Below are positions 1,693 through 22,889 of a stretch of DNA of 34,246 bases, piece after piece. The DNA comes from a virus (lineage: Duplodnaviria; Heunggongvirae; Uroviricota; Caudoviricetes), in IMG/VR virus record IMGVR_UViG_2529292882_000018, positions 1 to 34,246 of that record, one strand, 5' to 3'. The notes under the pieces are model-generated. The model searched no databases and was not told the origin of the DNA. It saw nothing but the letters and a program-made list of their open reading frames with translations. A program made the position numbers and the translations under genes. Within the stretch, counting starts at the first letter, position 1. Each line of letters opens with the position of its first letter.

Positions 1693-1724
1693 AAAGCCAT
1701 CATATAATTCTCAGTGAAAGGTTA

Positions 1725-3746: not shown

Positions 3747-3781
3747 TTTAGGTCAACCCTTTGGCGTCTTGTCAAGGGGTA

Positions 3782-3810
3782 TTGACAAAAATTTCTGACT
3801 TTTTTATGAT
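3782..3810 (+). promoter_or_regulatory. sigma70-like promoter with overlapping inverted repeat
   Basis: TTGACA (3782-3787), 17-bp spacer, TATGAT (3805-3810); inverted repeat TTGTCAA-6bp-TTGACAA at 3769-3788; further TTGACA/TTGACC boxes downstream. Confidence 0.45.
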
Positions 3811-3866
3811 TATCGCACTTGACAACTTTGAACCTATTTGACCTAGATTTGTAAAGAGGATGTAAC

Positions 3867-4199: not shown

Positions 4200-4288
4200 T
4201 AAATTTCTATTATAAATAAAATTGTTCCGGCGGTGATGCCGGAACTAGGAGGACCAAATCATTAAACCGTTTAAGGGGAATTAATACT

Positions 4289-5116
4289 ATGAATACTGTT
4301 ACCGTTATGAATACTGCTAAAACTGCTTCCGTGTCTCTGGTTGTTGATAACACCAAACCGCTGACCATGTCTTCTCGTCAGATCGCTGAATTTACCGGAA
4401 AAGAACATAAGCATGTTAAACGTGATATTAAAACTATGCTTACTTCTCTTGAATTAGATGAGTCCAAATTTGGACGCATCTTTTTTGACCAATATGGACG
4501 TGAACAAACCGAATATCACCTTGACGAAGAACTTACGCTGACTCTTGTTACTGGTTACGATGTTAAGCGTCGAATGGTTGTTATTCAGGAATGGAAGCGA
4601 CTGAAAGAAGAAAATGAAAAACTGCGTTCTCAGCAAATCAACCCTTACGCAAACATGACTAAGCTCGACTGGATTCGTGAGGCAATGGAATTGGAAGCCG
4701 CAAACGAACAACTGATTCAAGAAAAGAAACAACTGGTTGAATTGCATGTTCGTAAAGCTATCGACACACACAGTCTTAGCCGCTTATTAGGCGAAAAACG
4801 AGGCTCTACGACGGTACAAATGATTCTGAAAGGTTTATGTGCTGCTGGTGTTCTTGAGCGTCGTCTGGATGCTTCTGGTAAGCCTAAAGGCTATGATCTG
4901 CTTCCTCCTGGCTATATGTTCGCTCGTATGTCGGCACACGGTCAGATCGAGTTCACTGCTGATGCTATCCCGCATCTCGTAAAACTCGGATTGCTTGAAG
5001 AAGAAAAGGCCGCAACTTTGAAATTGCCACAGCCGAACAACTCACGAGCAATCATTAATAACACTGCTTTGCTGATTCGTCAGAATGCTGGCTCTCTGGA
5101 AGTCTTCGGACTGTAA
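4289..5116 (+). CDS. Rha-family phage regulatory protein (antirepressor-like)
   Basis: 275-aa ORF; N-terminal segment MSSRQIAEFTGKEHKHVKRDIKTML matches the Rha N-terminal signature as I recall it; central coiled-coil. Confidence 0.65.
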   Translation: MNTVTVMNTAKTASVSLVVDNTKPLTMSSRQIAEFTGKEHKHVKRDIKTMLTSLELDESKFGRIFFDQYGREQTEYHLDEELTLTLVTGYDVKRRMVVIQEWKRLKEENEKLRSQQINPYANMTKLDWIREAMELEAANEQLIQEKKQLVELHVRKAIDTHSLSRLLGEKRGSTTVQMILKGLCAAGVLERRLDASGKPKGYDLLPPGYMFARMSAHGQIEFTADAIPHLVKLGLLEEEKAATLKLPQPNNSRAIINNTALLIRQNAGSLEVFGL

Positions 5117-5124
5117 TAATTTTT

Positions 5125-5149
5125 GCCCCTGAATTTCAGGGGCTTTTTT
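5125..5149 (+). terminator. intrinsic terminator
   Basis: GCCCCTGAA / TTCAGGGGC inverted repeat followed by TTTTTT directly after the Rha-like gene. Confidence 0.8.
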
Positions 5150-5241
5150 GTATCTGTAGATGCGCTCAGAGTTGAGTACATCCCCTCAATTTTGAGGGCA
5201 TCTATAGATCTCACCAAAACTGGCGAGATTGTTTTACATAC

Positions 5242-5265
5242 AAAAAAGCCACTCCGAAGAGTGGC
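5242..5265 (-). terminator. intrinsic terminator for the minus-strand cassette
   Basis: GCCACTC-CGAA-GAGTGGC hairpin preceded on + strand by AAAAAA (U-run on minus transcript). Confidence 0.65.
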
Positions 5266-5280
5266 AAAGAGAATCAAAAC

Positions 5281-5514
5281 TCAAAAACCTGTTGCTTCTA
5301 CGATCTGACCATCACCGATCTGAACATAGAATTTAATGTCTAACTTCTTCATATTCTTATAGAATTGGGCGATTGAGATCCCATGTTCACTAAGAATCTG
5401 TTCTTTCGCTTCCTTACCACGATCCGCTGTATAGTAAGCGTAGGCAATATCAGCCATCTGTTCAGCGTTAAAACGGGCAGGACGACCGCGAGTAGCTTTA
5501 GTAGTCATAGTCAT
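5281..5514 (-). CDS. small putative HTH DNA-binding protein (paralog of 1725-1907)
   Basis: Track ORF 5281-5541 begins at GTG; an ATG at 5514 with GGAGA RBS gives MTMTTKATRGRPARF...; C-terminal FYKNMKKLDIKF motif shared with the 60-aa protein. Confidence 0.5.
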   Translation of the reverse strand: MTMTTKATRGRPARFNAEQMADIAYAYYTADRGKEAKEQILSEHGISIAQFYKNMKKLDIKFYVQIGDGQIVEATGF

Positions 5515-5543
5515 TTTCTCCAAATTAAAGTGAATGTTCACCT

Positions 5544-6146
5544 TTATTTAGAGGACTTACATTTTATCGGAAAAAGTTCTCCATCGTCAATACTCATAAA
5601 GAACTCTGCCTTAATCCCGTACTTCTTCAACCGTGAATAGTATGTACCCCGACTTATATCAACCTTGCGAAGCACTTCAAAGAACCCTTTAGGATCGTTG
5701 TAATAGTGGCTATAACGCACGTTAGCGAGTTCAACGAATAGTTCCCTTGTATCACCATAGCCTTTCTTGAAAGCCTCGTTACGATAGCGTGTAATTGCGT
5801 GATTCAATCTCTTCTGTTTCAACACTTCTCGGATCGGCTTCCACTGCAACCGATAGATAGGACCGTCATCCACTCGATAATAACGCTTGATATCAAAATC
5901 AAACCAATCTCGGACTCTCCGAAACTCTGTATGTGATGTTCTATGCTTCTTAAAGAAGTTGTGAACGTCTGTATAACCATTATCGCGGTAAAACTCTATT
6001 AAAATCTCTTTCGCTTCCTCACGACTAAAGCCAGATGTTGTGTAGTCGGTTTTTAAATGCTTATGCTTAACTGGTAAACGATATTCATGATCGGTACAAG
6101 ACAAGGCTAATTCTAATTCATCTCTTTGTTGCTGATTAATTAGCAT
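5544..6146 (-). CDS. hypothetical basic protein with C-terminal HTH-like motif
   Basis: 200-aa ORF with AAGGGGGG RBS; C-terminal [16 protein letters not shown] resembles the HTH of the two small paralogs; arginine/lysine rich. Confidence 0.5.
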
Positions 6147-6234
6147 ACAACCCCCCTTAAATCTTAATACCCGTATTTATCAAAAAATCAACAATTTAAT
6201 AAATACCTTCATATTTCGTAATGAGGGTAATTAC

Positions 6235-8139
6235 ATGAAACTGATTTCTAATAAGGCCAAATTAAAAAAGATTCTCAGAAATGCAGCCAAATATATTACG
6301 CCACCGCCTAAACTCCTTCCTTCGGAATGGTGCGAAGCGAATATGGTGCTGGTAGATGGTCCTCAAGCTGGGGATAAAGTTAAATTGCTGTCATTTCAGA
6401 AAGGCATGATTGATGCTCCTTTCCTTGAGAACAAGAAAAAGTATGTTCTGATGACCAGTGCGCAGATCGGAAAGACTACCATCTTGAACGGCATCCTGTT
6501 TAACCAGATGGCTAACGATCCATGCAATATGATTATCGGACAATCAACCGCTAAAGAAATGTCTCAATATCTCGCTGGTAAGATCCGACCGTCTATCGAA
6601 GCATGTGATGCATTAAAAGACGTGGTTACAGACAAGAATGATCGCAATGCGGTTAACAACAATAACCAGCTACAGCTAAAAACGAATCACTTCCTTTACA
6701 TGGTATCGCTTACCAGTCCATCAACCCTACGCGGTAAGACCGCAAAGGTTGGATTACTTGACGAAATCGATGCTGCTACAGCCTCAGAAGAAGGTGATCC
6801 GGTGGCACTGGCTGCTAACCGTTTAACTACCTTTGGCGATGAAGGTCGATTAGTCGTATCCAGTACCCCGACCAGTAAGCTGGGAAGCATTAACCAGCAA
6901 TGGTTATCAAGTGATATGCGTATGTTTTTTGTTCCGTGTCCTCATTGCGGGGAACACCAGGTGATCGAGTGGGAAAACGTTCAATTTGAATGGCGTAACA
7001 TCGATGGTAAGAACTTACCCGATCCTGATACCGCTCGTTATATTTGCCCCCACTGTAAGAACGCATGGACCGAAGGGGAACGAATCAGGGCAGTAGCGCA
7101 AGGCGAGTGGAGAGCAACCCGTGAAAGTGAAGTAGCAGGATTCTGGATTAGCCGTCTGTATTCACCTTTCAGTAGTATCCGCGCTTGTGTGGTTGATTTT
7201 AGTCATGCGTGGCAATCCTTTGATTTACAATCATTTTATAACACCGTGTTAGGTAAGGTATACGACGATCAGGACACGGCAGTAGAAGCAAATGAACTGG
7301 AACAACTCAAAACAGATGTTTCTATCGAGAATATCCCTGATGACGTGATTTTCTTATGTGCGGGTACTGACCAGCAATTAGATCGCGCAGAAACTACCAT
7401 CTTAGGTGTAGCGAAAGATAAGGTTTACATTCTGGATCACCGCAGCTTTTACGATCATAACTGTGAACGATATGAATCCCCTGTATGGGATAGATTAATC
7501 AACTTCCATAAAACCAAATTTACTACTGTATCGGGTGATCGTGTTCCTATGCTCGCCAGCTTCCTTGATACATCGAACGGTCGATTCACTCAAGCTGGAT
7601 ACCGTATTTGCGGCAAGTGGAAGAACTTACACGCTATCAAAGGTAGTTCTGCTGGTAACGCTCCGATCATTCCGGTTAAACCTACCCGCACAGGTGGTCA
7701 TGAATTGCTTATGTTGGGTGTTAACGTGGGTAAAACTGCATTTCGTGAAATGTTGGCTAGGAACCTGAAAGATAATCCTCATATTGCCTTAGAAATATCA
7801 GACACCGTTCCTGATGATTATCTCGATCAGCTTTTAAGTGAATCTGTTAAGCGTACTACTACTGGCGTGAGATGGGTAAAAAATCCAGGCGTTAGGAACG
7901 AGGCGCTCGACTGTGCCGTGTATGCTACAGCGGCTTCTCGCTACGTCCTTTCAAAAATGTCATGGGATAAACTCATCGCAATGAAAGACAGCTTAAACCG
8001 TGTTGTCGAAGAACCCGTAAAAGCTCCTAAATCGCAATCTAACGAGCAAACCGAAGAAACTAAGCCAATCACACGACCACAACGTAAAAACATCGCCAGA
8101 CGTCCAAATAGAGGCCGTAGTTGGGTAACATCGTTCTAA
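6235..8139 (+). CDS. terL: terminase large subunit, lambda GpA type
   Basis: 634-aa ORF; Walker A-like SAQIGKT; blocks [35 protein letters not shown] and [13 protein letters not shown] match lambda gpA blocks as I recall them. Confidence 0.9.
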
Positions 8140-8211
8140 TAACTCGCCGTCCTTCGGGGCGGCTTACTCCTAAATATTGTTAATCCAATAACAATTAAAT
8201 AAGGGGTAATT

Positions 8212-8709
8212 ATGAGTTTAGAACTAATTCCCTTAGTAATTCGTAAAGGCGAAAAAGTCACGCTTGCGAATGAAGAGGGTGTAACAATTCAGGTAGGAAA
8301 TAGTAATAAAGGTATCATTTATCAGGTTGATGATACTCCGGCTAATCATGAGATTAAAACCTTAGATTTTGCCGAAGGTAAATATACCATCGTAATAACT
8401 TTTGAAGAAGAACTGGTATCAATGCAGGAATTAACTGTTTTGCCAGTATTCGCCAAACAATCCAAAAAAGAATATCTGCGGGAAACTATCGCCATTTTGG
8501 AACAAGTCATCTTTTCTCGTTTATCTGGGGACGAAGCCGCATTATCTCAAATGACCGTGAAAGGGAATACTTTCGCCTATGAGTCATTGGGTGTTCTCCA
8601 GCAATTGAAGACTGATTATGAACGTCAGTTATCTAAATTAATTCAAGCCGAACGACGTAAACAGGGAATTAGCCCGATTAAAAATATCAAATTACGTCTT
8701 ACGCGATAA
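8212..8709 (+). CDS. hypothetical protein (head-assembly position)
   Basis: 165-aa ORF with AAGGGGTAAT RBS, between terminase and portal. Confidence 0.55.
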   Translation: MSLELIPLVIRKGEKVTLANEEGVTIQVGNSNKGIIYQVDDTPANHEIKTLDFAEGKYTIVITFEEELVSMQELTVLPVFAKQSKKEYLRETIAILEQVIFSRLSGDEAALSQMTVKGNTFAYESLGVLQQLKTDYERQLSKLIQAERRKQGISPIKNIKLRLTR

Positions 8710-8719
8710 GGGGTAAATC

Positions 8720-10231
8720 ATGTTTAATCTTTTTCGACGCAAAAAGGCGGTAGAAACTCCAGTTAAAACTAATCACCGCCAGCAACAACCAAAAATTTTC
8801 ATCGACAAACAAGTAGAAAAATTCCAGAAAGATTTGTCTAAGCGTTCTTTGGGCTTAGTTGGTGATCGCATTGATGGATCGCTTCAACAAGATACCATTA
8901 CAGGAACCTTCAATAAGGCTCTCAAATCGAACGGTAAGCGCCTTTATGATCAGGGTCGTACTCTGGCTATAAACAATGCTGTAGGTAAGCGATACAAGCA
9001 GTATATCGTTGACCAAGTTGTTGGCACGGGGCTTGATCCGAAGCCATCAATCGTTAAATCAAATGGCAAACTTGACACCGCACTGAATAAGCAAATCGAG
9101 AATGCTTTCTGGAAGTGGGCGCAGAGTGCTAAACGCTTCTCTCGCAACGGTCGCTTTAACTTCCGTGAAATGCTGGCAATGGCAGAATCTGAACGTGTTC
9201 AGGGTGGAGAATGTTTCATCGTTTTAACCAAAGAAAACAACGAGTTACAAGTTTCTATTCTGTCTGCTGATAGGTGTGACTGGTCGCTTAGTCGTGAAAT
9301 AAGCAAAGACCGCGCGATCTATCAAGGGATTGAGTATGACGTAGAAACAATGCGCCCTGTAGCATACTGGTTTAGAAAAATCAATCTACTGACTCAGACC
9401 TACACTGGCGAAAATTATCGCGTAGATGCTTCTCAGGTGTGCCACTACTACCAGCCACTGTGCGCGGAAAGTTTACGTGGCGTGACTGACTTCCTGCCAG
9501 TGATTAAGGATATCGCACATCAAGACGCATTCCGCGAAGCTGTACTGGTCATGAAACGAATTTCAGCTTGTAACATGGCGTTCATCGAGCGTCCGAAAGA
9601 TTCTGGTGACGATTTTGATACTGGTGAAGATGATGAACAGTATCAAGCGCCAGAAGTTATTCACGATTTCGCGCCAGGTACTATTCAGGAATTACCGGAA
9701 GGGGCAACGATTAAATCAATCCAATCTACTCAATCAGGCGATGATTTTAACAGCTTCAATGATGCGATGTTTACTAGCGTATCAATGGGATTGGGCGTGT
9801 TCAAACAGGGCTTGACTGGTGATACTTCCCAGATCAACTACTCAGCCGCACGTTTCGGTGAATTAACCCAGCGCACACGAGTTAAAGCACTGCAAAACAA
9901 ATTAATTGAAACAGTGGTATTGCCAATTTTCGAAGCATATCTACGCCATTATTCCGCGCGTGGTATTGTTCCGATTCGTATTACTGCAATTCCGCATATT
10001 ATCGATAATACAACTATTATCCGTCCGCGTTTTGAATCCGTCGATCCATTTAAAGACGTAAGCGCCGAGATTGCTTTAATTGATAACGGACTTAAATCAC
10101 GTACTGCCGTTATATTAGAACGTGGTGATGATCCTGAAAAAGTATTCTCAGAGATTCAAGCCGAAAAGAGCGCACTAAATATTATCGTTGATGGTGAGGG
10201 TGAAGAAAAAAATTCCCCAGCCGATCCCTAA
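8720..10231 (+). CDS. portal protein (by position and size)
   Basis: 503-aa ORF directly between large terminase and prohead protease/capsid; strong RBS. Confidence 0.75.
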   Translation: MFNLFRRKKAVETPVKTNHRQQQPKIFIDKQVEKFQKDLSKRSLGLVGDRIDGSLQQDTITGTFNKALKSNGKRLYDQGRTLAINNAVGKRYKQYIVDQVVGTGLDPKPSIVKSNGKLDTALNKQIENAFWKWAQSAKRFSRNGRFNFREMLAMAESERVQGGECFIVLTKENNELQVSILSADRCDWSLSREISKDRAIYQGIEYDVETMRPVAYWFRKINLLTQTYTGENYRVDASQVCHYYQPLCAESLRGVTDFLPVIKDIAHQDAFREAVLVMKRISACNMAFIERPKDSGDDFDTGEDDEQYQAPEVIHDFAPGTIQELPEGATIKSIQSTQSGDDFNSFNDAMFTSVSMGLGVFKQGLTGDTSQINYSAARFGELTQRTRVKALQNKLIETVVLPIFEAYLRHYSARGIVPIRITAIPHIIDNTTIIRPRFESVDPFKDVSAEIALIDNGLKSRTAVILERGDDPEKVFSEIQAEKSALNIIVDGEGEEKNSPADP

Positions 10232-10276
10232 TAACCAACGGGGGCGCAATGCCCCCAATTAATTAAAGGTGATTAA

Positions 10277-12277
10277 ATGCTTAAATTTCGCCGCGATCTT
10301 AACGGTTACGGTGGAGTTATTAACGAAGGGCATAACGATCAATACGAGTTTGAAATTGCTTTCTCCAGTGAACAGCCTTATCAGCGCCAATTCTGGGATG
10401 AGCAAAATCAAGAAATGGTGGTATTAGATGAAATTCTGGTACATACACCGGAAGCGGTTGATCTGTCTCGTCTGAATAATAACGCTCCGTTGCTGTTCAA
10501 TCATAATTTCGATAATCACATTGGTGTTGTTTGTAACGCTCGAATCGATGCGGATAACGTAGGTCGTGCTCTGGTTAAATTCTCTAAGCATGGGACTATG
10601 GCTAACGATATTCGTAATAAAGTCATTGAAGGTACGATGGAAAAAATTTCTGTCGGCTATGACATTAAAGAATATCACATCGATTATGCCAAAGGGCAAT
10701 TGATTGTTACTAAGTGGGCACCCTATGAACTCTCATTTGTCACCGTTCCTGCTGACGATACGGTTGGTTTAAATCGCTCTCTAAATACTATCACAGTTAA
10801 TTTGGAGGCTAAACGCGATATGACTAAAGAACAAATCGAAGAAATCAAAGAAGAACAAGAAGCCGCTCAGGTTGAAGAAACTCCGGTAGAAGAAAATAAA
10901 GAATCGGAAGTTGAAGAAACTCAAGAGCGCCAAGTTGAAGAGAATAAAGAAGATGAAAATCTCGAAGACGGAAAAGACGCTGAACATCCTGAAAGTGTTG
11001 ATGATGATAGTTCAACTGTTCGGGAAACAGAAGAAGTAAAAGAAGAACGTGAAGCCGCTCCGGTTGAAGAAGAAAAAACCGAAGAAGTGGCTGAACGTTC
11101 CGAAGAAGACGAAGAAGAAATTCGCGAAATTGCACGCGAACTAAATATTGATGACTCTGAATTAGCACGCGCATTGGCAATTAAAGACATGACGCCGGAA
11201 GCATTCCGCACTAAGGCACTAAATAATCTCGTCAATGCTCAACGTAATAACGAACAAATTAAGGACTCTAAAATGGAAAAAACTTTTGACCTGAACAACG
11301 TAATTCGCTCTCTGGTAGATGGTGCTGCTCTGGGTGCTAACGAAGCTGAATATTCCGCTATGGCTGCTGGTGCTGCAATGCAGCGTGGTCGTGCTGCTCG
11401 CGGTGGCTCTGTATTCGTTCCGGCTGCTGCTATGCGTGCTGCTTCTGCTGGTAACACCAAAGCCGACCTGACCGCTATCACTGACGAAAAACTGATGACT
11501 GAATCCTACATCGAAATGCTGATGCCGGAATCTGTTCTGGGTCGTCTGGGTGTGACTGTTTACAGTGGCTTGAACTCACCGACCGCTATTCCAAAAATGA
11601 CTAAATCCAGCGTTGACGCTTTCGGCTTCGTTGATGAAAACGGTGCTGCACCGGAAAGCAAAGCTGAATTTGCAAACGTGAAACTGTCTCCTAAGACTTT
11701 TGCTGGTGGCAACCCGATCAGCCGTCAGTCGCTGAAAACCGTTCCGGGCATCGCTACCCTGATCACTGATCACATTAACAAAGCTGTTCGCATCAAACTG
11801 GAACAACTGATTCTGTCTGATAAAGCTAACGACCGTGGTCCGGCTGGTCTGGTTAAGCAACTGGTAGACGCTAGCCGCGTTACCAAGAAAGCTGCTTTCT
11901 CTTATAAAGACTTCCTGAAAGAAATTGCAGCACTGACCGACGCTGGCGTTCCTGCTCAGGCGATCAAGTTTGCAATGAGCGGTGCAACTGCTGCTGAACT
12001 GGAATCTACCCTGAAAGATAACGGCGTTTCCGGTTATATCATCGAAAACGGCAAACTGGCTGGTTACGAAGTAGTTACTTCTGGCGTTATCCCGGCAGAC
12101 CACATCGTTCTGGGTGACTTCTCCGGTATTACTATCGGTGAGTGGGGAGGTCTGGAACTCGACATGGATCTAACTACATATAGGGATCGTGGTGCGGTAG
12201 TGCCTCGTATCTTTGTAGATTTGGACTACGTTGTAGCACAGCCGGAAGCTCTGAAAGTTCTTCACATCTCCGAATGA
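10277..12277 (+). CDS. prohead protease - acidic scaffold-like linker - major capsid protein fusion
   Basis: 666 aa; N-terminus has ELSFVTVPADD motif typical of HK97-type prohead proteases; middle is Glu-rich with repeated EAA(Q/P)VEE units; C-terminal ~330 aa is capsid-like with highly biased codons. Confidence 0.75.
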   Translation: MLKFRRDLNGYGGVINEGHNDQYEFEIAFSSEQPYQRQFWDEQNQEMVVLDEILVHTPEAVDLSRLNNNAPLLFNHNFDNHIGVVCNARIDADNVGRALVKFSKHGTMANDIRNKVIEGTMEKISVGYDIKEYHIDYAKGQLIVTKWAPYELSFVTVPADDTVGLNRSLNTITVNLEAKRDMTKEQIEEIKEEQEAAQVEETPVEENKESEVEETQERQVEENKEDENLEDGKDAEHPESVDDDSSTVRETEEVKEEREAAPVEEEKTEEVAERSEEDEEEIREIARELNIDDSELARALAIKDMTPEAFRTKALNNLVNAQRNNEQIKDSKMEKTFDLNNVIRSLVDGAALGANEAEYSAMAAGAAMQRGRAARGGSVFVPAAAMRAASAGNTKADLTAITDEKLMTESYIEMLMPESVLGRLGVTVYSGLNSPTAIPKMTKSSVDAFGFVDENGAAPESKAEFANVKLSPKTFAGGNPISRQSLKTVPGIATLITDHINKAVRIKLEQLILSDKANDRGPAGLVKQLVDASRVTKKAAFSYKDFLKEIAALTDAGVPAQAIKFAMSGATAAELESTLKDNGVSGYIIENGKLAGYEVVTSGVIPADHIVLGDFSGITIGEWGGLELDMDLTTYRDRGAVVPRIFVDLDYVVAQPEALKVLHISE

Positions 12278-12420
12278 ACTAGCGTAGAACCTTCTGAACC
12301 TTCCCCCGATTTGGGGGAAGAAAATCTGATTCCATCTCAGGAAGAAGAATCCCAGACGGTTACGGCGAAAGCCACAGCTAAAAAGGTGGGACGTCCACCG
12401 AAAGCAAAATAATAATAATT

Positions 12421-12448
12421 AGCCCTGCCTAACGGTGGGGCTTTTTTG
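12421..12448 (+). terminator. intrinsic terminator after capsid region
   Basis: AGCCCTGCC-TAAC-GGTGGGGCT hairpin followed by TTTTTT. Confidence 0.7.
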
Positions 12449-12477
12449 TATGTAAATACTCCATAAAGGGGGTAACT

Positions 12478-12768
12478 ATGTTCAAATTATCAGAATCACA
12501 ATTATCAAGAATGTTCCGAAGTGCTCCTGTATTTTCGGTGGAAGGTGGTAAATCAATTCGTGCTTATCATGAAATTACTACTACCGACGAACAAGGGGTA
12601 ATGACAGAGACAGAATTTCTATTTTGTCGTGAGGGAGACTTAAAGCAAGGTGATATTGTCATTGTAGAAAATCAGCGTTTCAAAGTTCAATACGTTAAGC
12701 GCAATGGTGACAATACCGCAGATTGCTTTATCACTCTGGCAGGGGGTACACATGCTCGCTACCGTTAA
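12478..12768 (+). CDS. hypothetical head-tail connector candidate
   Basis: 96-aa ORF with AAGGGGGTAA RBS immediately after capsid gene. Confidence 0.55.
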   Translation: MFKLSESQLSRMFRSAPVFSVEGGKSIRAYHEITTTDEQGVMTETEFLFCREGDLKQGDIVIVENQRFKVQYVKRNGDNTADCFITLAGGTHARYR

Positions 12769-13174
12769 TAATATGCCTAGACTGAAAATCAAACGCGCCT
12801 TGCAAGATATTATCGAACAAGATTTAGGTCTGGCTTTAAACGTAGAACAAACTCAGCAAGGCTTTAGTGATGACGTGGTTTGTTGGATCACCGGAATGAA
12901 TGAGACTTACACGCGTGTTCGTGGCGGTAATGCAATGCAAGCTGAATGTGTTATCGAAATGCAATTGTATTCTCAGATTCATGAAACCAAAATTCATGAG
13001 GGTATTTGCCAGATAATCCAGATTCAGCCGGATAACCCACGTTTTAAAGATTTGGGCTTCTCAATTTCAGATATCACTCCAGTAGCTTCTAATACCGATT
13101 ATGACGATGATTCTAGTGATGGTGGTATCGTTGGGACACTTAGCCTTAAATTTTCTTATGTAGCGCGTTTTTAA
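12752..13174 (+). CDS. hypothetical head-tail joining candidate
   Basis: Track ORF starts 12704; internal ATG at 12752 has a GGGGG RBS and overlaps the upstream stop by 17 nt. Confidence 0.5.
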   Translation: MLATVNNMPRLKIKRALQDIIEQDLGLALNVEQTQQGFSDDVVCWITGMNETYTRVRGGNAMQAECVIEMQLYSQIHETKIHEGICQIIQIQPDNPRFKDLGFSISDITPVASNTDYDDDSSDGGIVGTLSLKFSYVARF

Positions 13175-13183
13175 GGGGTAATA

Positions 13184-14017
13184 ATGAATATTACACAAGA
13201 TAACTTAGACATTTTCACGGGGTCGCATGTTGAAGTTTCCGTGTCTACTATGGTGGATAACCAGCCGGACTTTTTCGATCCTGCATTTAGTCCTATCGAG
13301 AACATCGCAGCATTCCCGACGATAACCGAATCTACAGAGATCCAGACGTTAGAAGAGTATGATCAGGACGCTACGGGGAAACTTGCTGGTTATCGTAAAC
13401 TTGAATCAACTACGTTAGTAGTAAACCGTGTTCTGGATGACGAACATCAAGACATGTTGATGAAAGCGGTAGAGGATAAAACACCTTTACGCTTCCGAAT
13501 GTTCTATGTTGTGAACTCTGGCTATAGTGCTGCTAACACTGGTTACTATGTCATCTATGATGCTTACGTCACATCACATAAAACCCGTGGTAGCGATAAC
13601 AAAGCGGTAACACTGGAATTTAAACTTGAACCAGATGGCGGGATTCTTGCAAGGGGTATCGCGACCGAAGGCCGGATCTTACGTCAAGGTGATTTTGGTT
13701 TGGGTGCTGGTGTACATCCATTCACAGGTCCGATTGATAGCGAAGCATTAGCCGGAAACCGTTTCGTAACTTATCAGGGATCGAGCGCATCTAATCCATT
13801 TAGTGCTGATACTTCACTAATTCACGTTCAACCTAATGAAGATGGTGGATGGCAATTAACTTGCACCGCTTCCGGCGCACCACGTTTACGAGTTCGCACA
13901 GTCCAGAAAGACGGTAATTCGGGATGGGTGAAAGTGTATTCCACAGAAGAAAAACCGACACCAGCCGAGATTGAAGCCGTTTCTATCCATGACCGGATCG
14001 ATTTCGGTGAGTTCTAG
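13184..14017 (+). CDS. putative virion structural protein
   Basis: 277-aa ORF with strong RBS; C-terminal EEKPTPAEIEAVS motif is shared with the side fibre (KPTPAEIGAYS). Confidence 0.55.
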   Translation: MNITQDNLDIFTGSHVEVSVSTMVDNQPDFFDPAFSPIENIAAFPTITESTEIQTLEEYDQDATGKLAGYRKLESTTLVVNRVLDDEHQDMLMKAVEDKTPLRFRMFYVVNSGYSAANTGYYVIYDAYVTSHKTRGSDNKAVTLEFKLEPDGGILARGIATEGRILRQGDFGLGAGVHPFTGPIDSEALAGNRFVTYQGSSASNPFSADTSLIHVQPNEDGGWQLTCTASGAPRLRVRTVQKDGNSGWVKVYSTEEKPTPAEIEAVSIHDRIDFGEF

Positions 14018-14044
14018 TATTCACTTCCTAAATAAAACATGACG

Positions 14045-14072
14045 CGGGGAGGTTAACGCCTCCCTTATTCCT
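14045..14072 (+). terminator. intrinsic terminator
   Basis: GGGAGG-TTAACG-CCTCCC hairpin followed by T-rich tract, upstream of fibre gene. Confidence 0.55.
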
Positions 14073-14092
14073 GTTTTATGTGAGGTGATTAG

Positions 14093-17000
14093 ATGCAATC
14101 AATCCAATTTAAACGAACTAATGTTTCTGGCAAAAAGCCAACGCCGGAACAATTACAGGTCGGTGAGGTGGCAATCAACCTTAAAGACCATGTTATTTTT
14201 ACCAAAGACCGAGATCATGAAGTAGTTCAAATCTCTGTTTCTCCTGAAACTCACGCGGCACTAGAATCTAAAGTTGATGCTAACAAACAAGAATTGGATA
14301 GCACAATTGCAGTAAATGACCGCAATATTCACGCTAAAGTAGATGAAATTAAACAAACTACTGATTCTACTATCGCAGCAAATCATGCAGAAATTAACAA
14401 TAAAGTTGATGTAATTAAACGCGAAACCGACGCGACAATCGAAGCTAATAAAAATAAAGCTGCTTCCGATCTTGCTGGTGTTAAAGCTGAATTGTCGGAT
14501 ACCATCAACGCTAATAAAAATGCGGCTGCTGTAGCAACTCAGGAACTGGACACCCGCATCAATAAAAAAGTTGATGATATTAAATCCCGTACAGATGCAA
14601 CCATCGCAAGCAATGACAAAGCAATCAATGACAAAGTTGATTTGATTAAGACAGAAACTGACCGCACTATCGCAGCAAATAAAGTCTATGCGGAAAATCA
14701 GTTAACTGACACCTACAATAACCTTACTGGTGTGATTGCAGCTAATAAGCAAGAGGCAGCGGATAACGTTGCGGCATTAACCCGTGATGTTGAAGCCAAA
14801 AATACAGCAATTCATAGCAAAGTTGACAATAACAAGTCTTACACTGATTCTGAACTGGCACGTTTAGAAAGCCGTATTGATGCAGCCGATGGATCTGCTG
14901 ATGGCAAGTACATCAAAAAACACGTAAACACTTATACTGATGGTTATTTGCTGTCTAAGACCGCAAACTATTTTGATGATCCAAATGCGCGTAATCTTGA
15001 TTACTTTGGTGCATTCCGCATGAATGACCTGGCGGGTCATATTGCAATGATCTTGCATGTTCCGCATCCATCTGGTGTTAATCATGCTCGTGGCTTTGAG
15101 TTCACTTATGGGTCTAATCCACATGCTACTGTAAGAACATACGGCTATGATGAATTAGGTAATTTGTCATATTCTCACCGCATGTATCATGAAGGTGATA
15201 AACCTACTCCGGCTGAAATTGGCGCATATTCGAAAGCAGAAATTGACCGGATGTTCCAGAAGACCATCAACTTTGGTGTAGAAACTGGATGGTTTAAAAT
15301 TGCTACCGCCTTTATTCCGCAAAATGACGGACGTAGCTTGAAAATTAGATTGATTGGTGGAAATGGGTGGAACGTAGGACAAACTGGACAATGTAATATT
15401 ATTGAACTTGTTATAAGGACTAGCAACGGTTCGCCTAAAGGAATTAACTTTGTTGCGTATCATCATGTTTCTGGTTACGAAAATCAATTTTGTGCCATTA
15501 ATACAGGTGATGACACTTATGATATCTATGCATATTACTTCGAATTTACTAATATGGTAATGGCTGAATATCAAGCGTCCAGCGATGTTAATTTAACTGT
15601 ACTTGATCGACCTGAATATGTAGGCGATAAACCTGTAGCTGACCATATCTATGATGCATATACAATACACTCCTTTAACAGTTTCAGTAACCGTGGAACG
15701 TTAAATTTTGCTGGAAACCATCAAGGCCAATATGACATTGAGCATATGAACGAACAACCGACAAATGCTAAAAAGATGTTGCGTCGGTTTAGAAGCTCTG
15801 CCCTCGCGACAATCTGGCATGAAACCGTTGATGATAACGCATATCGTCTTGCCACTGGCGGTACAGATTCAGGTCAACAATTATTGCTGACAACAACCGG
15901 GTTACATGTCAAGAGATTAACATTGGATGGCGGTGCTGCGGGTGGAAATGCTGGTATTGATATTCGTCGAGGACCAAACGAAGCAAGCCATTTTAATTTT
16001 ATGGATTATCGCACTGGTCAAGATGTTCGTAATGGCTGGTTTGGTTTTGGTGATTTGACGACCAAAGATTTTATTTGGTGTAACGATAACGGTCAAAACT
16101 CGATAAACTTGATTGAAAACGGTGAATTACATATTACTGGTGGTAAAGGCCAGAAAATTGTAATGAATAGCGAAGTCGCATTGTCTGAAAATGCTCGTTT
16201 GGCTGTTAAAGGTGGTAATTATGGCTTAATTTTTAGAAATGATGGTACTAGTTTCCATATACTGACTACCGATTTAAAAGATTCTTTTGGAAATTGGAAT
16301 AATCGTAGACCATTCAGCTATGATTTCGCCGAAGGTGGATTAGATCTAGGTGGCACAACGACCGAACGCTGTTTACATCTGGGAATTGATGGTAGTACCC
16401 GCATCGAGGAGAACTTAGTTTTCCGATCTGGGTCGCGTCAATCAATGGACTATATTGAAATGATCCATTGGGGTAACAGTAATATCGCTCGTGACAACGT
16501 TTTGAGTATGAAAGACTCAAAAGGATTCCTTGCTGAATTTGAACGAGTGGGTGGGACTAACGGCGTTAAAACCAGATTCTTTGGTGAAACATTCACTGAT
16601 GGTACATTATACCTAAATCAGATGAATAATAGCTCTGAACGATTCTCTATCAACAATTGGGGAAATTCAGAAGTTGGACGCGCGGCAGTAATGGAAATCG
16701 GCGATTCCAAAGGTTATCACTTCTATACGGAACGTAGAACAGATAACAGTTTGATGTTTGATGTTGCTGGCGCTTTTACTGTGCATGGACCTAGCGGGAT
16801 CACTATCAAAAACTCTGATGGTGCTCGTCACATCTGGTTTAGAGATAACAGCGATACAGAAAAGGCTGTTATCTGGGCTACAGATGAGGGTATTTTACAT
16901 ATTCGCAATAACCACGGTGGACAATTTAGTCATCACTTCCAGGGTGCAATGATTAAAGCGGGAGAGCGTGTTCCATATAATAGTGAATACGCTCTTATCC

Positions 17001-17602
17001 GTGGTGATATTTCCGGTGGTGCATGGGTAGACTGGCGAGCGCGTCCGGCTGGATTGTTGGTAGACTGTCAGGACTCACGAAATCAAGCATATAACATTTG
17101 GAAAGCTACTCATTGGGGCGAACAGCACCTTGCGGCGATGGGTGTTCATGCTGGCGGTGGTAATCCTCATGTTGTATTGCATGTGGGTGGGAATGATTAT
17201 GCATTTGCATTTAACGGTGATTTTACTGCTGGTGCTGCTGTATATTGTAACGACGTTTATATTCGTTCTGACCGTCGTCTGAAAATTAATGTTGAAGACT
17301 ACGAAGAGAATGCGGTGGATAAGGTAAATAAACTCAAAGTTAAAACCTATGATAAAGTTAAATCTCTTTCTGACCGCGAAGTTATCGGCCATGAGATTGG
17401 TATTATCGCACAGGATTTGCAAGAAGTATTACCGGAAGCTGTTAGCACTTCTAGTGTCGGATCTCAGGATAACCCAGAAGAAATTTTAACAATTTCAAAC
17501 TCCGCAGTGAACGCGCTTTTAATTAAAGCGGTCCAAGAAATGAGCGAAGAAAATAAAATCCTTCGTGAACGTCTTGCTGCAATTGAGGCTAAATTAGGGT
17601 AA
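14093..17602 (+). CDS. side tail fibre / tailspike-like protein with C-terminal intramolecular chaperone (S74-type) domain
   Basis: 1169 aa; N-terminal tandem ~21-aa KVD..IK..TD.TIAAN repeats; C-terminal SDRRLKINVED...IGIIAQDLQEV... matches the auto-cleaving chaperone domain known from T5 L-shaped fibre and K1F endosialidase. Confidence 0.8.
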   Translation: MQSIQFKRTNVSGKKPTPEQLQVGEVAINLKDHVIFTKDRDHEVVQISVSPETHAALESKVDANKQELDSTIAVNDRNIHAKVDEIKQTTDSTIAANHAEINNKVDVIKRETDATIEANKNKAASDLAGVKAELSDTINANKNAAAVATQELDTRINKKVDDIKSRTDATIASNDKAINDKVDLIKTETDRTIAANKVYAENQLTDTYNNLTGVIAANKQEAADNVAALTRDVEAKNTAIHSKVDNNKSYTDSELARLESRIDAADGSADGKYIKKHVNTYTDGYLLSKTANYFDDPNARNLDYFGAFRMNDLAGHIAMILHVPHPSGVNHARGFEFTYGSNPHATVRTYGYDELGNLSYSHRMYHEGDKPTPAEIGAYSKAEIDRMFQKTINFGVETGWFKIATAFIPQNDGRSLKIRLIGGNGWNVGQTGQCNIIELVIRTSNGSPKGINFVAYHHVSGYENQFCAINTGDDTYDIYAYYFEFTNMVMAEYQASSDVNLTVLDRPEYVGDKPVADHIYDAYTIHSFNSFSNRGTLNFAGNHQGQYDIEHMNEQPTNAKKMLRRFRSSALATIWHETVDDNAYRLATGGTDSGQQLLLTTTGLHVKRLTLDGGAAGGNAGIDIRRGPNEASHFNFMDYRTGQDVRNGWFGFGDLTTKDFIWCNDNGQNSINLIENGELHITGGKGQKIVMNSEVALSENARLAVKGGNYGLIFRNDGTSFHILTTDLKDSFGNWNNRRPFSYDFAEGGLDLGGTTTERCLHLGIDGSTRIEENLVFRSGSRQSMDYIEMIHWGNSNIARDNVLSMKDSKGFLAEFERVGGTNGVKTRFFGETFTDGTLYLNQMNNSSERFSINNWGNSEVGRAAVMEIGDSKGYHFYTERRTDNSLMFDVAGAFTVHGPSGITIKNSDGARHIWFRDNSDTEKAVIWATDEGILHIRNNHGGQFSHHFQGAMIKAGERVPYNSEYALIRGDISGGAWVDWRARPAGLLVDCQDSRNQAYNIWKATHWGEQHLAAMGVHAGGGNPHVVLHVGGNDYAFAFNGDFTAGAAVYCNDVYIRSDRRLKINVEDYEENAVDKVNKLKVKTYDKVKSLSDREVIGHEIGIIAQDLQEVLPEAVSTSSVGSQDNPEEILTISNSAVNALLIKAVQEMSEENKILRERLAAIEAKLG

Positions 17603-17641
17603 TTGGAAAGCGGGGCGAAAATCCCCGCTAAGGATTCTTAT

Positions 17642-17938
17642 ATGGGATATTGGGTAAGTAGTGAAATTAATACTAAAATCGATGCTTTAAAATGGCATGT
17701 ATTTGATATTCCTAACGGCTATGGTACTGCTCGTGCTGGTGTCGCTGTAATGCGTCATAATGCTGGTGGTGGGTGGTCTGATGCACATATTAACGTAGAT
17801 GGTTTGACCGTTGCTCGTCGTCGTGGTGGGACCAATTGGGGATCTACTATAAATTCGTTTGTTCCTGCTGGCTGCACCGTCTCCTTTGGTTTAGGGGGTG
17901 AAGGTGGTGTTGAATATTTTAAATTCATGGAGTTTTAA
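17642..17938 (+). CDS. small Gly-rich protein, paralog 1 of 3
   Basis: Track ORF starts at TTG 17603 inside a hairpin; ATG 17642 with AAGGA RBS gives MGYWV...FDIPNGYG. Confidence 0.55.
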   Translation: MGYWVSSEINTKIDALKWHVFDIPNGYGTARAGVAVMRHNAGGGWSDAHINVDGLTVARRRGGTNWGSTINSFVPAGCTVSFGLGGEGGVEYFKFMEF

Positions 17939-17940
17939 TT

Positions 17941-18246
17941 ATGGCTGGATGGATAAATCAAAGAATGTCAAACGCTATTAGTATTTGGGCTAATGGTGGA
18001 TATTTTGATATCCCCAACGGTTGGGTCACTGATTCATGCGGAATTGTCTTTGCTCATATGGAAGCCATTAACGGTGCTGGTGATCTTGATTCTGAATTGG
18101 CTGTAAATGGATTGATTGAATCAGGTCATCATGCTGGTGATGCTGGGAGTTGGGGCGCTAGTTCTTTAGTTGGCGCTGGTGCTACCGTTAGCTTTACATT
18201 GGGTAAAGGTAGTTTGCATTATTTCAAATTCAGGAGAATGCACTAA
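17941..18246 (+). CDS. small Gly-rich protein, paralog 2 of 3
   Basis: 101 aa, MAGWI...FDIPNGWV; DNA-level similarity to neighbours around the GATATTCCTAACGG block. Confidence 0.55.
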   Translation: MAGWINQRMSNAISIWANGGYFDIPNGWVTDSCGIVFAHMEAINGAGDLDSELAVNGLIESGHHAGDAGSWGASSLVGAGATVSFTLGKGSLHYFKFRRMH

Positions 18247-18548
18247 TGGCATTTTGGGTAGATGGCGCTTTGGGGAATAGGGCGGGTAAAGCAAATCAAG
18301 GATGGTTTGATATTCCTAACGGGTGGACAGCCGACGCTTTCGGGACTATTTCATTTTCCGCTCATTCTTCCGGTGGTGGCGGTGGTGACTCTGAATTGCT
18401 TATTCATGGTTTGTGTGTTTCTGGAAGTCATAAGGGTCATGATTGGGGACAGATTCATTCTTGTATTGCACCGCAAGGGGCGGTAATTACCGTTAGCACG
18501 AATAGAGGGATTGCTCATCTTCGTTATAGACGCTTGAGCAACCGCTAA
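18246..18548 (+). CDS. small Gly-rich protein, paralog 3 of 3
   Basis: 100 aa, MAFWV...FDIPNGWT; start overlaps previous stop (TAATG); AGGAG RBS. Confidence 0.55.
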   Translation: MAFWVDGALGNRAGKANQGWFDIPNGWTADAFGTISFSAHSSGGGGGDSELLIHGLCVSGSHKGHDWGQIHSCIAPQGAVITVSTNRGIAHLRYRRLSNR

Positions 18549-18602
18549 ATAAATAGAATTACGGGTATGTGCCCTATTGTTTAAAATAGAAGGAAAAGAA
18601 TA

Positions 18603-19073
18603 ATGACTACTAAATTTGATATTTTCTCTGGTGGCCTCGTTGGTCTGTTTCTGCAAGAAGACGTAAACAATAAAGACCTTGATGCTGAAACCTATCTGGA
18701 AATTCCAGAATGTGCGGCTTTCCCGGAAACTGGTGTAGAACGTTCTACGATCGATGTTCCAAACTTCTCTGGTGCTTATAACCGCAAGCTGGTTGGCCGT
18801 ATGTCTGTACCGGATATCGAACTTTCGATCAACTACATGCCGGGTAACGAAGTACACGAAAAACTGATTAAAGCAACCGAAGACGGTAAGCGCGTACAGC
18901 TTAAAATTGCTTACTACATCGATGCTACGAAAAAATCTGGTGTACATATCGCTTATAACGGCTTCCTGTCTAAAACTACCATGACTGGTGGTGAGGATGC
19001 TGTAGTAGGCCGTACCTTCACCTTTGTAGTAGATGGTGCTCCGGTTAAACAAGCTGTTTTCCAGACTCTCTAA
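18603..19073 (+). CDS. major tail tube protein, lambda gpV-like N-domain
   Basis: 156 aa; INYMPGNEVHEKLIKATEDGKRVQLKIAYY resembles the lambda gpV block LAWMPGEQ...EGDTRAYKIRF as recalled; canonical position before the G/T chaperone genes. Confidence 0.7.
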   Translation: MTTKFDIFSGGLVGLFLQEDVNNKDLDAETYLEIPECAAFPETGVERSTIDVPNFSGAYNRKLVGRMSVPDIELSINYMPGNEVHEKLIKATEDGKRVQLKIAYYIDATKKSGVHIAYNGFLSKTTMTGGEDAVVGRTFTFVVDGAPVKQAVFQTL

Positions 19074-19081
19074 TATTATCT

Positions 19082-19107
19082 AGCCATCCTTCGGGGTGGC
19101 TTTTTTG
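19082..19107 (+). terminator. intrinsic terminator after tail tube gene
   Basis: GCCATCC-TTCG-GGGTGGC hairpin followed by TTTTTTG. Confidence 0.7.
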
Positions 19108-19155
19108 TTTCCAATTCTAAATAAACATATCGAATTAACTTAAGAGGAAACAATA

Positions 19156-19464
19156 ATGAATATTAACGAAATGTTAGCCGCACTCTCTCCGAAACGCGAA
19201 TCTTTGACCATCGGTGGATTCACTTTCTATGCTCGCCCTATGTCAGTAAAAGAATTTAACGAACATGTTTTCAATACTGATAAAGAAGACCGTGATGAAC
19301 GCTCTATTCTTCGTTGTATTGAAGATGAAGACGGTAAGCCAGTATTTGAATCTATGGAACAAGTTAAGGCACTGTATACTAACGTTCGAAGTGAATTAAT
19401 CGGTTTGGTTGCTCAAGCATCATTGATGCAAGATCCGGCAGTAATTGAAAACGAGGTAAAGTAA
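19156..19464 (+). CDS. tail assembly chaperone (G-like)
   Basis: 102-aa ORF with AAGAGGA RBS, between tail tube and tape measure. Confidence 0.6.
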   Translation: MNINEMLAALSPKRESLTIGGFTFYARPMSVKEFNEHVFNTDKEDRDERSILRCIEDEDGKPVFESMEQVKALYTNVRSELIGLVAQASLMQDPAVIENEVK

Positions 19465-22282: not shown

Positions 22283-22327
22283 AGCCCTCATAGTGATAAA
22301 TAATCATAAAACTATGGGGGCTTTTTC
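22283..22327 (+). terminator. stem-loop with T-run after tape measure gene
   Basis: AGCCCTCATAG ... CTATGGGGGCT imperfect inverted repeat followed by TTTTT. Confidence 0.45.
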
Positions 22328-22328
22328 T

Positions 22329-22889
22329 ATGTTCAAATCCAAAAATATTAAAATCACAGATTTTACTCTTAAATCAAAACAACCTTTCTTCAAGGCGCAA
22401 TCTATTTCTGGTAAATTTCAACGTCGCTTTACTGGCATTCATTTTTATGAAGCAGAATTTACAGCTAATTTCATGGCTCAGGATATTAACGAAGTAAAAG
22501 AATTTGTAGCACGTCACCTTTTTGGTCGTCCTTTCAGTGTGCCCCTGTCTTACTTTTCAAAATATACAGGTGATGTACGCCAGATGGTTACGGCTGCTGC
22601 TGGTACTGCTCGCGGTGGGCGTAAGGTGAGAATCTCCAACTTCACCGGAACACTGAAAGCGGGAACTATCATCCAGTTTGAGAACCACAAGAAAATCTAC
22701 ACGATCACCGAAGATGTGAAATCAGGTGGTGAAATGAAACTCTTCCCTAACTTGCGTCAGAACGTCCTGGCGGGTGAGGTGATCAAGTATCAGAACGTAG
22801 AAGGCGAATTTGTTCTCAAAACTGAAAACATCGATTGGAAGATCGCCCAGATTGGCAAGATGAAATTCGAATTAGTGGAGAATGTATAA
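22329..22889 (+). CDS. minor/distal tail protein (gpM-position)
   Basis: Track ORF starts at GTG 22293 within the hairpin loop; ATG at 22329 follows a GGGGG tract; 186 aa. Confidence 0.5.
   Translation: MFKSKNIKITDFTLKSKQPFFKAQSISGKFQRRFTGIHFYEAEFTANFMAQDINEVKEFVARHLFGRPFSVPLSYFSKYTGDVRQMVTAAAGTARGGRKVRISNFTGTLKAGTIIQFENHKKIYTITEDVKSGGEMKLFPNLRQNVLAGEVIKYQNVEGEFVLKTENIDWKIAQIGKMKFELVENV

Follow-up and report, generated by a model that had tools for sequence, protein, structure and literature searches.

A gp37-type side fibre of a lambda-like temperate siphovirus of Escherichia coli, with a candidate tube-fold anchor and three candidate tip proteins in the gp38 slot

Background

How would a phage with a lambda-like, non-contractile tail mount and use a fibre of the T-even type? 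The question is raised by a gene for an 1169-amino-acid (aa) protein at positions 14093-17602 of a viral DNA of 34,246 nucleotides (nt) (Caudoviricetes; IMG/VR record IMGVR_UViG_2529292882_000018, positions 1 to 34,246). The whole of this stretch is called the window below, and all nucleotide positions refer to it unless another locus is named. The gene lies in the head-tail block, directly downstream of a gene for a 277-aa protein and upstream of three small genes, here called s1, s2 and s3.

Fibres of the gp37 type that bear an S74 chaperone are well known, as is fibre mosaicism between temperate and T-even phages; mosaicism among lambdoid and T-even phages has been recognised for decades. 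In T4, the fibre proteins run from proximal (N-terminus) to distal (C-terminus), and gp36 joins the N-terminus of gp37.

Our overall explanation, to which we give a probability of about 0.6, is that the gene encodes the gp37-type side fibre of a lambda-like temperate siphovirus in E. coli, that the 277-aa protein anchors it through a fusion of a tail-tube paralogue with a gp36-like end, and that the products of s1-s3 cap its tip. In the following sections, we describe the fibre and its chaperone, then the candidate anchor and the candidate tip proteins, and finally the exchange of this region among phages.

Identity and architecture of the fibre

The open reading frame (ORF) begins with ATG behind a ribosome-binding site (GAGGTGA) and encodes a protein of 129.4 kDa. 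An earlier note had read it as a side fibre, and the ORF, its start and its ribosome-binding site, together with the homology to gp37 described below, bear this out. The ratio of nonsynonymous to synonymous divergence (dN/dS) against three relatives is 0.15-0.31, which indicates that the gene is maintained under purifying selection; the ORF is real and intact. The exact protein sequence is deposited from E. coli B799 (WP_001190725.1 / EIG43766.1), where it is annotated only as 'tail fiber domain-containing protein'.

The shaft and the tip are both homologous to gp37. The match to PHROG 1699 ('long tail fiber distal subunit') has E 1e-133, and all 19 PHROG matches are fibre families or families without known function. 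The closest T-even counterpart is the protein in the gp37 position of Krischvirus vB_EcoM_G37-3 (G37-3), whose residues 71-954 are 88% identical to fibre aa 285-1169 (885 aa); at the DNA level, megablast aligns window 15179-18564 with G37-3 at 93.6% identity. The gp37 of RB32 is 79% identical across 458 aa and has an identical tip. At the other end, fibre aa 1-47 align with aa 4-50 of T4 gp37 (45% identity, E 2e-9) and carry the gp37-type N-terminal joint motif. Sequence searches of PDB return S16 gp37, T4 gp34 and Mu gpS, and Pfam Gp34_trimer (PF21446) matches aa 643-743 with E 1.8e-14. From this homology it is almost certain that the protein is a T-even gp37-type distal half-fibre, homologous to gp37 of the T2/T6/S16 type. 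As such it adds one more case to a known fibre type, for which a tail-fibre annotation already exists.

With gp37 of the T2/T6/S16 type (G37-3 being the closest, and RB32 in the tip and chaperone), the fibre shares the N-terminal joint motif, the shaft domains, the DVYIR strand and an S74 chaperone with SDRRLK. The differences from T-even gp37 are that its gene stands between two tube-fold genes of a siphovirus prophage, that it contains an insertion of about 205 aa (aa 59-265), and that its downstream partner is a set of three small proteins rather than gp38. The fibre functions in a gp37-like manner but does not form part of a T-even long tail fibre, since the baseplate and the gp34-gp36 and gp38 context of such a fibre are missing. 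In particular, there is no gp34, gp35 or free gp36 in the window, and in place of a gp34-gp35-gp36-gp37 fibre on a contractile-tail baseplate the window specifies a lambda-like siphovirus with a tape measure protein, Dit and J and without a sheath.

The insertion at aa 59-265 is probably an alpha-helical coiled-coil stalk, judging from the register of its repeats (Table 1); this part of the protein has one Pro and five Gly among 235 aa. It appears as a gap when the fibre is aligned with G37-3 gp37, and a Salmonella relative has it. Tandem Repeats Finder reported only a trivial 15-nt repeat in the corresponding DNA, and the repeat of about 22 residues is seen at the protein level only. The globular module that follows (aa 266-381) is homologous to the C-terminal module of the 277-aa protein (BLASTP, 31% identity across 83 aa, E 8e-4).

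For the centre of the protein, the earlier note had suggested a beta-helical receptor-binding or depolymerase domain, with which the fibre would recognise or degrade a surface polysaccharide. The sequence evidence points instead to the simple shaft that the note had set against this idea. The centre is 88% identical to a T-even gp37 shaft, the neighbouring parts match shaft domains of T4 gp34, the PHROG matches listed above are of the same kind, and searches of Pfam, PHROGs, NCBIfam and PDB sequences found no hydrolase, lyase, beta-helix or other enzyme family in the fibre. Since aa 382-640 match no solved structure in PDB by sequence and were not modelled, there is some room for an unrecognised fold in that part. 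On these searches we rejected the depolymerase or beta-helix centre, which we consider extremely unlikely; receptor recognition more probably lies in the separate small downstream proteins, as far as the sequences indicate.

C-terminal chaperone and predicted cleavage

The C-terminus carries a near-complete match to Pfam Peptidase_S74 (PF13884; aa 1059-1117, model positions 1-57 of 58, 55.5 bits against a cut-off of 22, E 7e-15), in agreement with the intramolecular chaperone proposed in the earlier note. The motif SDRRLK begins at Ser1059 (nt 17267), from which 111 aa remain to the C-terminus, and the protein reads ...YCNDVYIR|SDRRLKINVEDY around the predicted cut. Ser is the first residue of the domain and Lys follows five residues on; the spacing in S1059-D-R-R-L-K1064 equals that of the catalytic dyad S911/K916 of endoNF (PMC8326128). 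In a HMMER alignment, DVYIR|SDRRLK falls directly on DLNVS|SDRRIKK of S16 gp37, the last 113 residues of which are autocleaved between the two serines of DLNVS^SDRRIKK, and in fPS phages a cut after Arg has been predicted in the homologous DVYIR^SDGRLKI (PMC7917993). Because of the alignment to the S16 site and the endoNF-like Ser/Lys spacing, cleavage between Arg1058 and Ser1059 is very probable, and the serine named in the earlier note is the expected site. The cut would divide the 129.4-kDa chain into 117.1 and 12.3 kDa (computed masses).

By homology with gp37 of the S16/T2 type, three fibre chains would trimerise with the assistance of the chaperone, which would then cut itself off by means of the Ser1059/Lys1064 dyad. 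The mature chain of 117 kDa would end with DVYIR as its last strand and new C-terminus, and would form a flat trimeric tip. The chaperone resembles those of endoNF, T5 pb1 and MyRF in its C-terminal position and in its full-length match to the Pfam family. In contrast to the endoNF type, the part upstream of it is a gp37-type fibre tip, not a tailspike, and its removal is expected to uncover a docking surface, as in S16, and not just to finish folding.

A tail-tube-fold protein as candidate fibre anchor

The 277-aa protein is similar in sequence and fold to major tail proteins of siphoviruses; the fibre gene thus sits between two tube paralogues. The earlier note had placed the fibre gene between connector and tail tube genes. 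It does follow the connectors and precede the 156-aa tube gene, but the upstream 277-aa protein is not a connector. Nor is it Dit, because a separate Dit is encoded at 22293-22889.

The exact 7-mer KPTPAEI is present in both proteins, in the 277-aa protein at aa 257-263 and in the fibre at aa 370-376; the fibre also has a variant, KPTPEQL, at aa 15. In the earlier note, the shared motif had been taken to suggest docking. We made a hidden Markov model (HMM) of the C-terminal 60 residues of the 277-aa family and ran it over every ORF in the locus of phage DCP80 and in three T-even fibre loci. Apart from its best match, described below, it picked out the KPTPAEI region at three further places within Krischvirus gp36; other matches lay in gp34 and gp37 and close to the start of T4/RB32 gp36. 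The motif is therefore a generic long-fibre repeat, found among the internal repeats of gp36, gp34 and gp37. We rejected it as a specific docking signature, and its sharing says nothing specific about this pair of proteins.

Docking is plausible on other grounds: the C-terminus of the 277-aa protein resembles that of Krischvirus gp36, and the N-terminus of the fibre resembles that of gp37, the partner of gp36. The best match of the anchor HMM was the extreme C-terminus of Krischvirus gp36, which aligned end to end with the last 29 aa of the anchor at 33 bits; by BLASTP, the similarity of the anchor C-terminus to Krischvirus gp36 has E 1e-5. The 277-aa protein ends in ...KPTPAEIEAVSIHDRIDFGEF and Krischvirus gp36 in ...KPTPAEVGAVPLNAVIDFGTF (pattern KPTPAE.GAV....IDFG.F*). 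The pair formed by an end of the type ..ID[FL]Gx[FYE]* and a following start of the type ..FKR...GE.xIN..D recurs in the window, in a Salmonella prophage, in a metagenomic phage, in DCP80 and in Krischvirus gp36/gp37; T4/RB32 gp37 share the gp37-like start half of it. The metagenomic anchor has 482 aa with three gp36-like KPTPA modules, the DCP80 anchor has 698 aa with a longer fibre-like extension and PTAA-type repeats, and both have the same kind of end. The anchor and fibre genes are adjacent in all relatives examined, and the 277-aa protein holds the only gp36-like C-terminus in the window.

Among relatives of the 277-aa protein, the C-terminal part is stretched so that the whole protein reaches 465-698 aa.

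On this sequence evidence, the 277-aa protein is a fusion of a tube paralogue with a gp36-like end, and the fibre probably docks on it. The N-terminus of the fibre would plug into the gp36-like C-terminal module, and the tube-fold domain would sit as a ring in or on the tail. As at the gp36/gp37 junction of the T4 family, the two genes are adjacent and in the same order, with a Krischvirus-gp36-like end followed by a gp37-like start. Unlike at that junction, the gp36-like module is fused to a tail-tube fold rather than joined to gp35/gp34 and a baseplate, and the similarity to the T4 gp36 C-terminus is non-significant.

Lambda Stf and T5 p132 also serve accessory fibres on lambda-like tails, by means of collars. 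Unlike in these systems, the ring-bound domain proposed here would be a separate tube-paralogue polypeptide, not a collar domain around the tube. In Ur-lambda, three ring-bound domains feed one trimeric fibre via flexible linkers (PMC12617516). By analogy, three ring-bound anchor domains may feed one trimeric fibre here, with segment 163-217 of the 277-aa protein as a possible lambda-type flexible linker; three anchor domains per fibre would give two fibres per hexameric ring.

Alternatively, the fibre may be anchored elsewhere, for example at the Dit/tube junction like lambda Stf or T5 pb1, and the 277-aa protein may be a tube subunit with a merely decorative fibre-like domain. The side fibres of lambda and T5 dock via 12-mer collars at the tube/Dit junction, and the Dit mentioned above is canonical. 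Decorative C-terminal domains are common on tube proteins; for example, the downstream tube protein of the metagenomic relative (locus L008) seems to have an Ig-like tail, judged by eye from the sequence. Against this, the fibre has no N-terminal collar domain of the lambda Stf type (Pfam prophage tail fibre N-terminal family, at E up to 0.1) and its N-terminus is gp37-like. In addition, the sole gp36-like C-terminus of the window belongs to the 277-aa protein, the two genes stay together in every relative examined, and the anchor varies in length with extra fibre-like sequence. We consider anchoring elsewhere improbable, and take docking on the 277-aa protein as the better account.

Three small genes in the adhesin slot

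The three genes downstream of the fibre gene, about which the earlier note says nothing, are paralogues, 25-41% identical to each other at the protein level, and closely spaced (a gap of 2 nt between s1 and s2, an overlap of 1 nt between s2 and s3). They are annotated as hypothetical proteins only, and the exact sequences of s1 and s2 each occur on about 950-970 public contigs. Their dN/dS is 0.04-0.24; the genes are tightly coupled and under purifying selection. Monomer models suggest a C1q/TNF-like fold for these proteins, and each protein has one N-terminal helix that begins with M-x-x-W (Trp4).

In T-even phages, these genes occupy the gp38 position, between gp37 and the holin gene. They were found in three phage records only, G37-3, G2248 and UPWr_E1, with three copies in each; for G37-3 and G2248 the slot itself was inspected. 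In a Salmonella prophage that belongs to the same family, the three genes follow an S74 fibre of about 60% identity. Orthology is 1:1:1, with 51-90% identity within orthologue groups versus 22-45% between paralogues. A profile search of 1.84 billion representative proteins gave 19 clusters, 15 of which contain proteins of about 100 aa and divide 5:5:5 into s1-, s2- and s3-like. In a search of PDB, the profile of the small proteins also gave a weak match to collagen IV (E 0.015, no significant stretch), which we disregarded.

No gp38 was found in the window by tblastn with gp38 queries of the T6 and T4 types, nor was gp38 of either type found in the infectious phage G37-3 (164.7 of 167.8 kb checked). 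In S16, gp38 docks via a three-helix bundle, and the apical Trp of each helix enters one of three symmetric pockets in the gp37 tip (PMC6851490). The triplet resembles gp38 of T2/T6/S16 in its gene slot and in the fibre tip to which it would be matched, and one N-terminal helix per small protein, with Trp or another hydrophobic residue at position 4, may be compared with the three Trp helices of gp38. In contrast to the single gp38 chain of about 260 aa with its polyglycine sandwich, it consists of three chains of about 100 aa with a predicted C1q/TNF-like jelly roll.

In the proposed scheme, the exposed tip would be capped by s1-s3, as jelly rolls each preceded by its N-terminal helix. They would replace the monomeric gp38 adhesin of T2/T6-type phages and would be the most likely carriers of receptor specificity. 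That the triplet is the tip adhesin is suggested by gene position and by the models, and we hold it to be slightly better than an even bet. The fixed copy number of three is indirect support for trimer formation, and the scheme favours a trimer of 1:1:1 composition; this particular composition is more tentative, with somewhat less than an even chance.

A rival explanation dispenses with the heterotrimeric cap. The small proteins may form homotrimers that serve as three alternative tips with a broader host range, or they may be assembly factors outside the virion, in which case the cleaved tip itself would bind the receptor. Against this rival, genes for alternative adhesins would be expected to vary in number, while here the number is fixed at three, the 1:1:1 orthology holds over lineages that have diverged to about 50% identity, and the clusters divide evenly. 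The predicted fold resembles fibre-knob and C1q heads, not known fibre chaperones, and the fibre has a chaperone of its own. We regard this rival as rather unlikely.

Points against the explanation

Several points weigh against the overall explanation. First, each of the three steps, cleavage, docking and capping, is inferred. As to the anchor, the model of the 277-aa protein has a mean predicted local distance difference test score (pLDDT) of 64, falls below 50 at aa 163-217 and is poor beyond the tube domain. The gp36-like match at its C-terminus is short; when the last 53 aa of the anchor were searched by tblastn across the database, the matches were non-significant (E 0.05-1), lay mostly in gp36 genes and were used as a pattern only, and the end of T4/RB32 gp36 (...VQDFGYY*) shows a loose resemblance and is undetected by the anchor HMM (-2.6 bits). 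There is also no obvious symmetry match between a hexameric tube ring and trimeric fibres.

For the triplet, the N-terminal helices are of low confidence (pLDDT 52-57), and the more distant members of the family have Tyr, Met, Leu or Asn in place of Trp4. The small proteins have no sequence similarity to gp38 (hhalign probability 0.4%), on which ground we rejected them as gp38 homologues. Finally, the models, being of monomers only, do not separate a heterotrimer from homotrimers or from a chaperone role.

A more specific version of the explanation is that a siphovirus mounts T-even half-fibres on its tail via the tube-paralogue/gp36 fusion, as a third anchoring solution beside the collars of lambda Stf and T5 p132, and that the tip is capped by a C1q/TNF-like heterotrimer, a split and non-homologous replacement of gp38 that is also present in a few virulent Krischviruses. 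Taken together in this form, these statements are possible but unlikely all to hold.

Exchange of the fibre region

Of 5426 complete E. coli genomes, 55 match the region 12400-19200, always in the chromosome, and 21 of these cover at least 80% of it. The 277-aa protein has homologues in E. coli, Shigella, Salmonella, Providencia, Edwardsiella and Proteus. The first 60 or so residues of the fibre are constant in the prophage family. In most of the partly covered E. coli genomes, homology to the window ends at about 14253-14287 (fibre aa ~54-65), and a different fibre lies beyond. Variant cassettes include an S74 'pyocin knob' fibre without an accessory gene, a gp38 version and a disrupted version. 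In these sequence comparisons, everything distal to about aa 60 of the fibre behaves as a swappable host-range cassette, exchanged among prophages of the family and with virulent T-even phages.

The synonymous divergence (dS) between the window and G37-3 falls from 1.96 at fibre aa 285-380 to 0.18 at aa 641-1058 and 0.03 in the chaperone; the values of 0.03-0.18 over the distal part indicate that prophage and virulent phage exchanged the distal end recently. Megablast alignment with G37-3 sets in just 5' of the KPTPAEI repeat of the fibre, which fits the repeats as recombination joints.

The downstream partner can also be exchanged. RB32 gp37 has the identical tip and cleavage site, and a T6-type gp38 adhesin lies downstream of it. 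The breakpoint between triplet-type and gp38-type cassettes falls within the last 15 or so residues of the chaperone. In E. coli TO6, the fibre is 89.5% identical overall to that of the window, with a different tip and with DVYIR|SDRRLK kept. There, a 70-aa 'hypothetical protein' (7615-7827 of that locus) that follows a gp38-type 'receptor-recognizing protein' is a remnant of the 3' part of s3, a replacement scar which implies that gp38 replaced the triplet in place.

The partner encoded downstream is reflected in the last 15 or so residues of the chaperone (window ~17557-17602), which are ...EENKILRERLAAIEAKLG ahead of the triplet and ...EEIKELKTPFFTKIARKISKYFKF ahead of gp38 (comparison with loci L010 and L003, the latter being E. 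coli TO6). The adhesin cassette thus takes in the 3' end of the fibre gene.

Exchange with Krischvirus has left a second trace at 29881-30138, within ORF 29754-30155. This stretch of 258 bp is 96-98% identical at the DNA level to the inh gene ('inhibitor of prohead protease') found in Krischvirus and its T-even relatives, and it adjoins a Peptidase_M15 endolysin gene (29438-29791).

One may ask whether the locus is instead a decaying remnant of a cryptic prophage, with a fibre that no longer functions. In related prophages of several E. coli genomes, IS3, IS421 or a gene for a GIY-YIG nuclease breaks up the fibre region, and one variant is annotated as a pseudogene. In the window, on the other hand, every structural gene examined is intact, the fibre, the anchor and s1-s3 have dN/dS values of 0.04-0.31, and near-identical modules work in infectious Krischviruses. 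Decay is thus very unlikely, and we continue to read the locus as that of a functional fibre.

Phage backbone and gene order

The gene set of the window is that of a lambda-like siphovirus, with a gpA-type large terminase, a 165-aa head-tail joining protein, a lambda-family portal and an S78 protease-capsid fusion. A 96-aa protein has weak, sub-threshold matches to head-tail attachment and head-closure families. Between this head-closure-like gene and the anchor lies a gene for a 140-aa protein (12752-13174) with no family match in Pfam, PHROGs or NCBIfam, which by its position could be a tail terminator or completion protein. Downstream of the 156-aa tube protein (Table 1) there follow a 102-aa protein that matches tail assembly chaperone families, a 116-aa protein with a weak match only, an 809-aa protein in the tape-measure position without a family match, Dit, and a 1258-aa J-type central fibre with the C-terminal receptor-binding domain of gpJ. 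Megablast of the backbone (window 1-14100) against 50,697 phage records gave no match; at the protein level, the anchor has a single relative among them, DCP80. Because the gene set is lambda-like with its own J-type central fibre, and because the backbone is unmatched, the fibre is the accessory (side) fibre of an uncharacterised temperate phage family.

The earlier note had described the fibre gene as flanked by terminators. A hairpin does lie on each side, but the upstream one has a weak U tail and the downstream one no U tract; clear terminators occur elsewhere, at 12421-12442 (3' of the capsid gene) and 19082-19101 (3' of the tube gene). In the capsid gene itself, an S78 prohead protease, an acidic Glu-rich linker and an HK97-type capsid domain are joined in one ORF of 666 aa (10277-12277) with the strong terminator after it. 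In the Salmonella relative, a DUF723/CapR-type gene (1792-2832 of that locus) stands between the capsid and connector genes.

In DCP80 (PQ671644, 1-23560), the same module of terminase, portal, capsid fusion, tube-fold anchor, fibre, tube and tape measure opens a 141-kb record that is classified as Gaprivervirus. The same structural module is present inside metagenome contigs of 246 kb and 174 kb. Either the module is shared by large phages, or these assemblies are chimeric.

Table 1. Positions of the fibre gene, its parts and the adjoining features in the window
Feature	Position	Strand	Remarks
277-aa proposed fibre anchor	13184..14017	+	tail-tube-fold domain aa ~12-160, low-confidence linker aa 163-217, gp36-like C-terminal module ending KPTPAEIEAVSIHDRIDFGEF*
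Hairpin between 277-aa gene and fibre gene	14046..14065	+	free energy (dG) -13.6 kcal/mol, weak U tail
Fibre gene	14093..17602	+	gp37-type distal long-tail-fibre subunit with C-terminal self-cleaving chaperone (predicted); ORF, PHROG 1699, G37-3 identity
Fibre aa 1-58, gp37-like N-terminal joint	14093..14266	+	IQFKR..G.KP....GE.AINL.D..FTKD; constant across prophage family
Fibre aa 59-265, probable coiled-coil stalk	14267..14887	+	repeats of ~22 residues, KVDxIKxxTDxTIxAN; repeat register; missing from T-even gp37
Fibre aa 266-381, small globular module	14888..15235	+	ends in KPTPAEIGA repeat (nt 15200-15220); PHROG 8378/20472
Fibre aa 382-1058, gp37/gp34-type shaft and tip	15236..17266	+	last strand DVYIR; Gp34_trimer; PDB matches T4 gp34, S16 gp37
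Fibre aa 1059-1169, intramolecular chaperone (Peptidase_S74)	17267..17599	+	Ser1059 and Lys1064; predicted released fragment 12.3 kDa
Hairpin between fibre stop codon and s1	17609..17629	+	dG -12.8 kcal/mol, no U tract
s1, 98 aa	17642..17938	+	first of three paralogues in gp38 slot; true start ATG 17642, not TTG 17603
s2, 101 aa	17941..18246	+	model: N-terminal helix, then C1q/TNF-like jelly roll
s3, 100 aa	18246..18548	+	start overlaps s2 stop by 1 nt
156-aa protein, probably major tail tube	18603..19073	+	PHROG 158 E 6e-20, Pfam lambda TTP families; strong terminator downstream

Conclusion

What sets the locus apart is the putative tube-paralogue/gp36 anchor together with the triplet that occupies the adhesin slot as a candidate adhesin. 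If confirmed, the combination of a tube paralogue with a gp36-like connector would be a new way to attach side fibres to a non-contractile tail, and it would explain the place of the fibre gene inside the head-tail block. The s1-s3 triplet, if confirmed, would be a previously undescribed type of adhesin in the gp38 slot and would matter for efforts to predict and engineer which hosts T-even phages infect. In addition, the locus is a record of host-range cassettes exchanged recently between virulent Krischviruses and prophages resident in E. coli.

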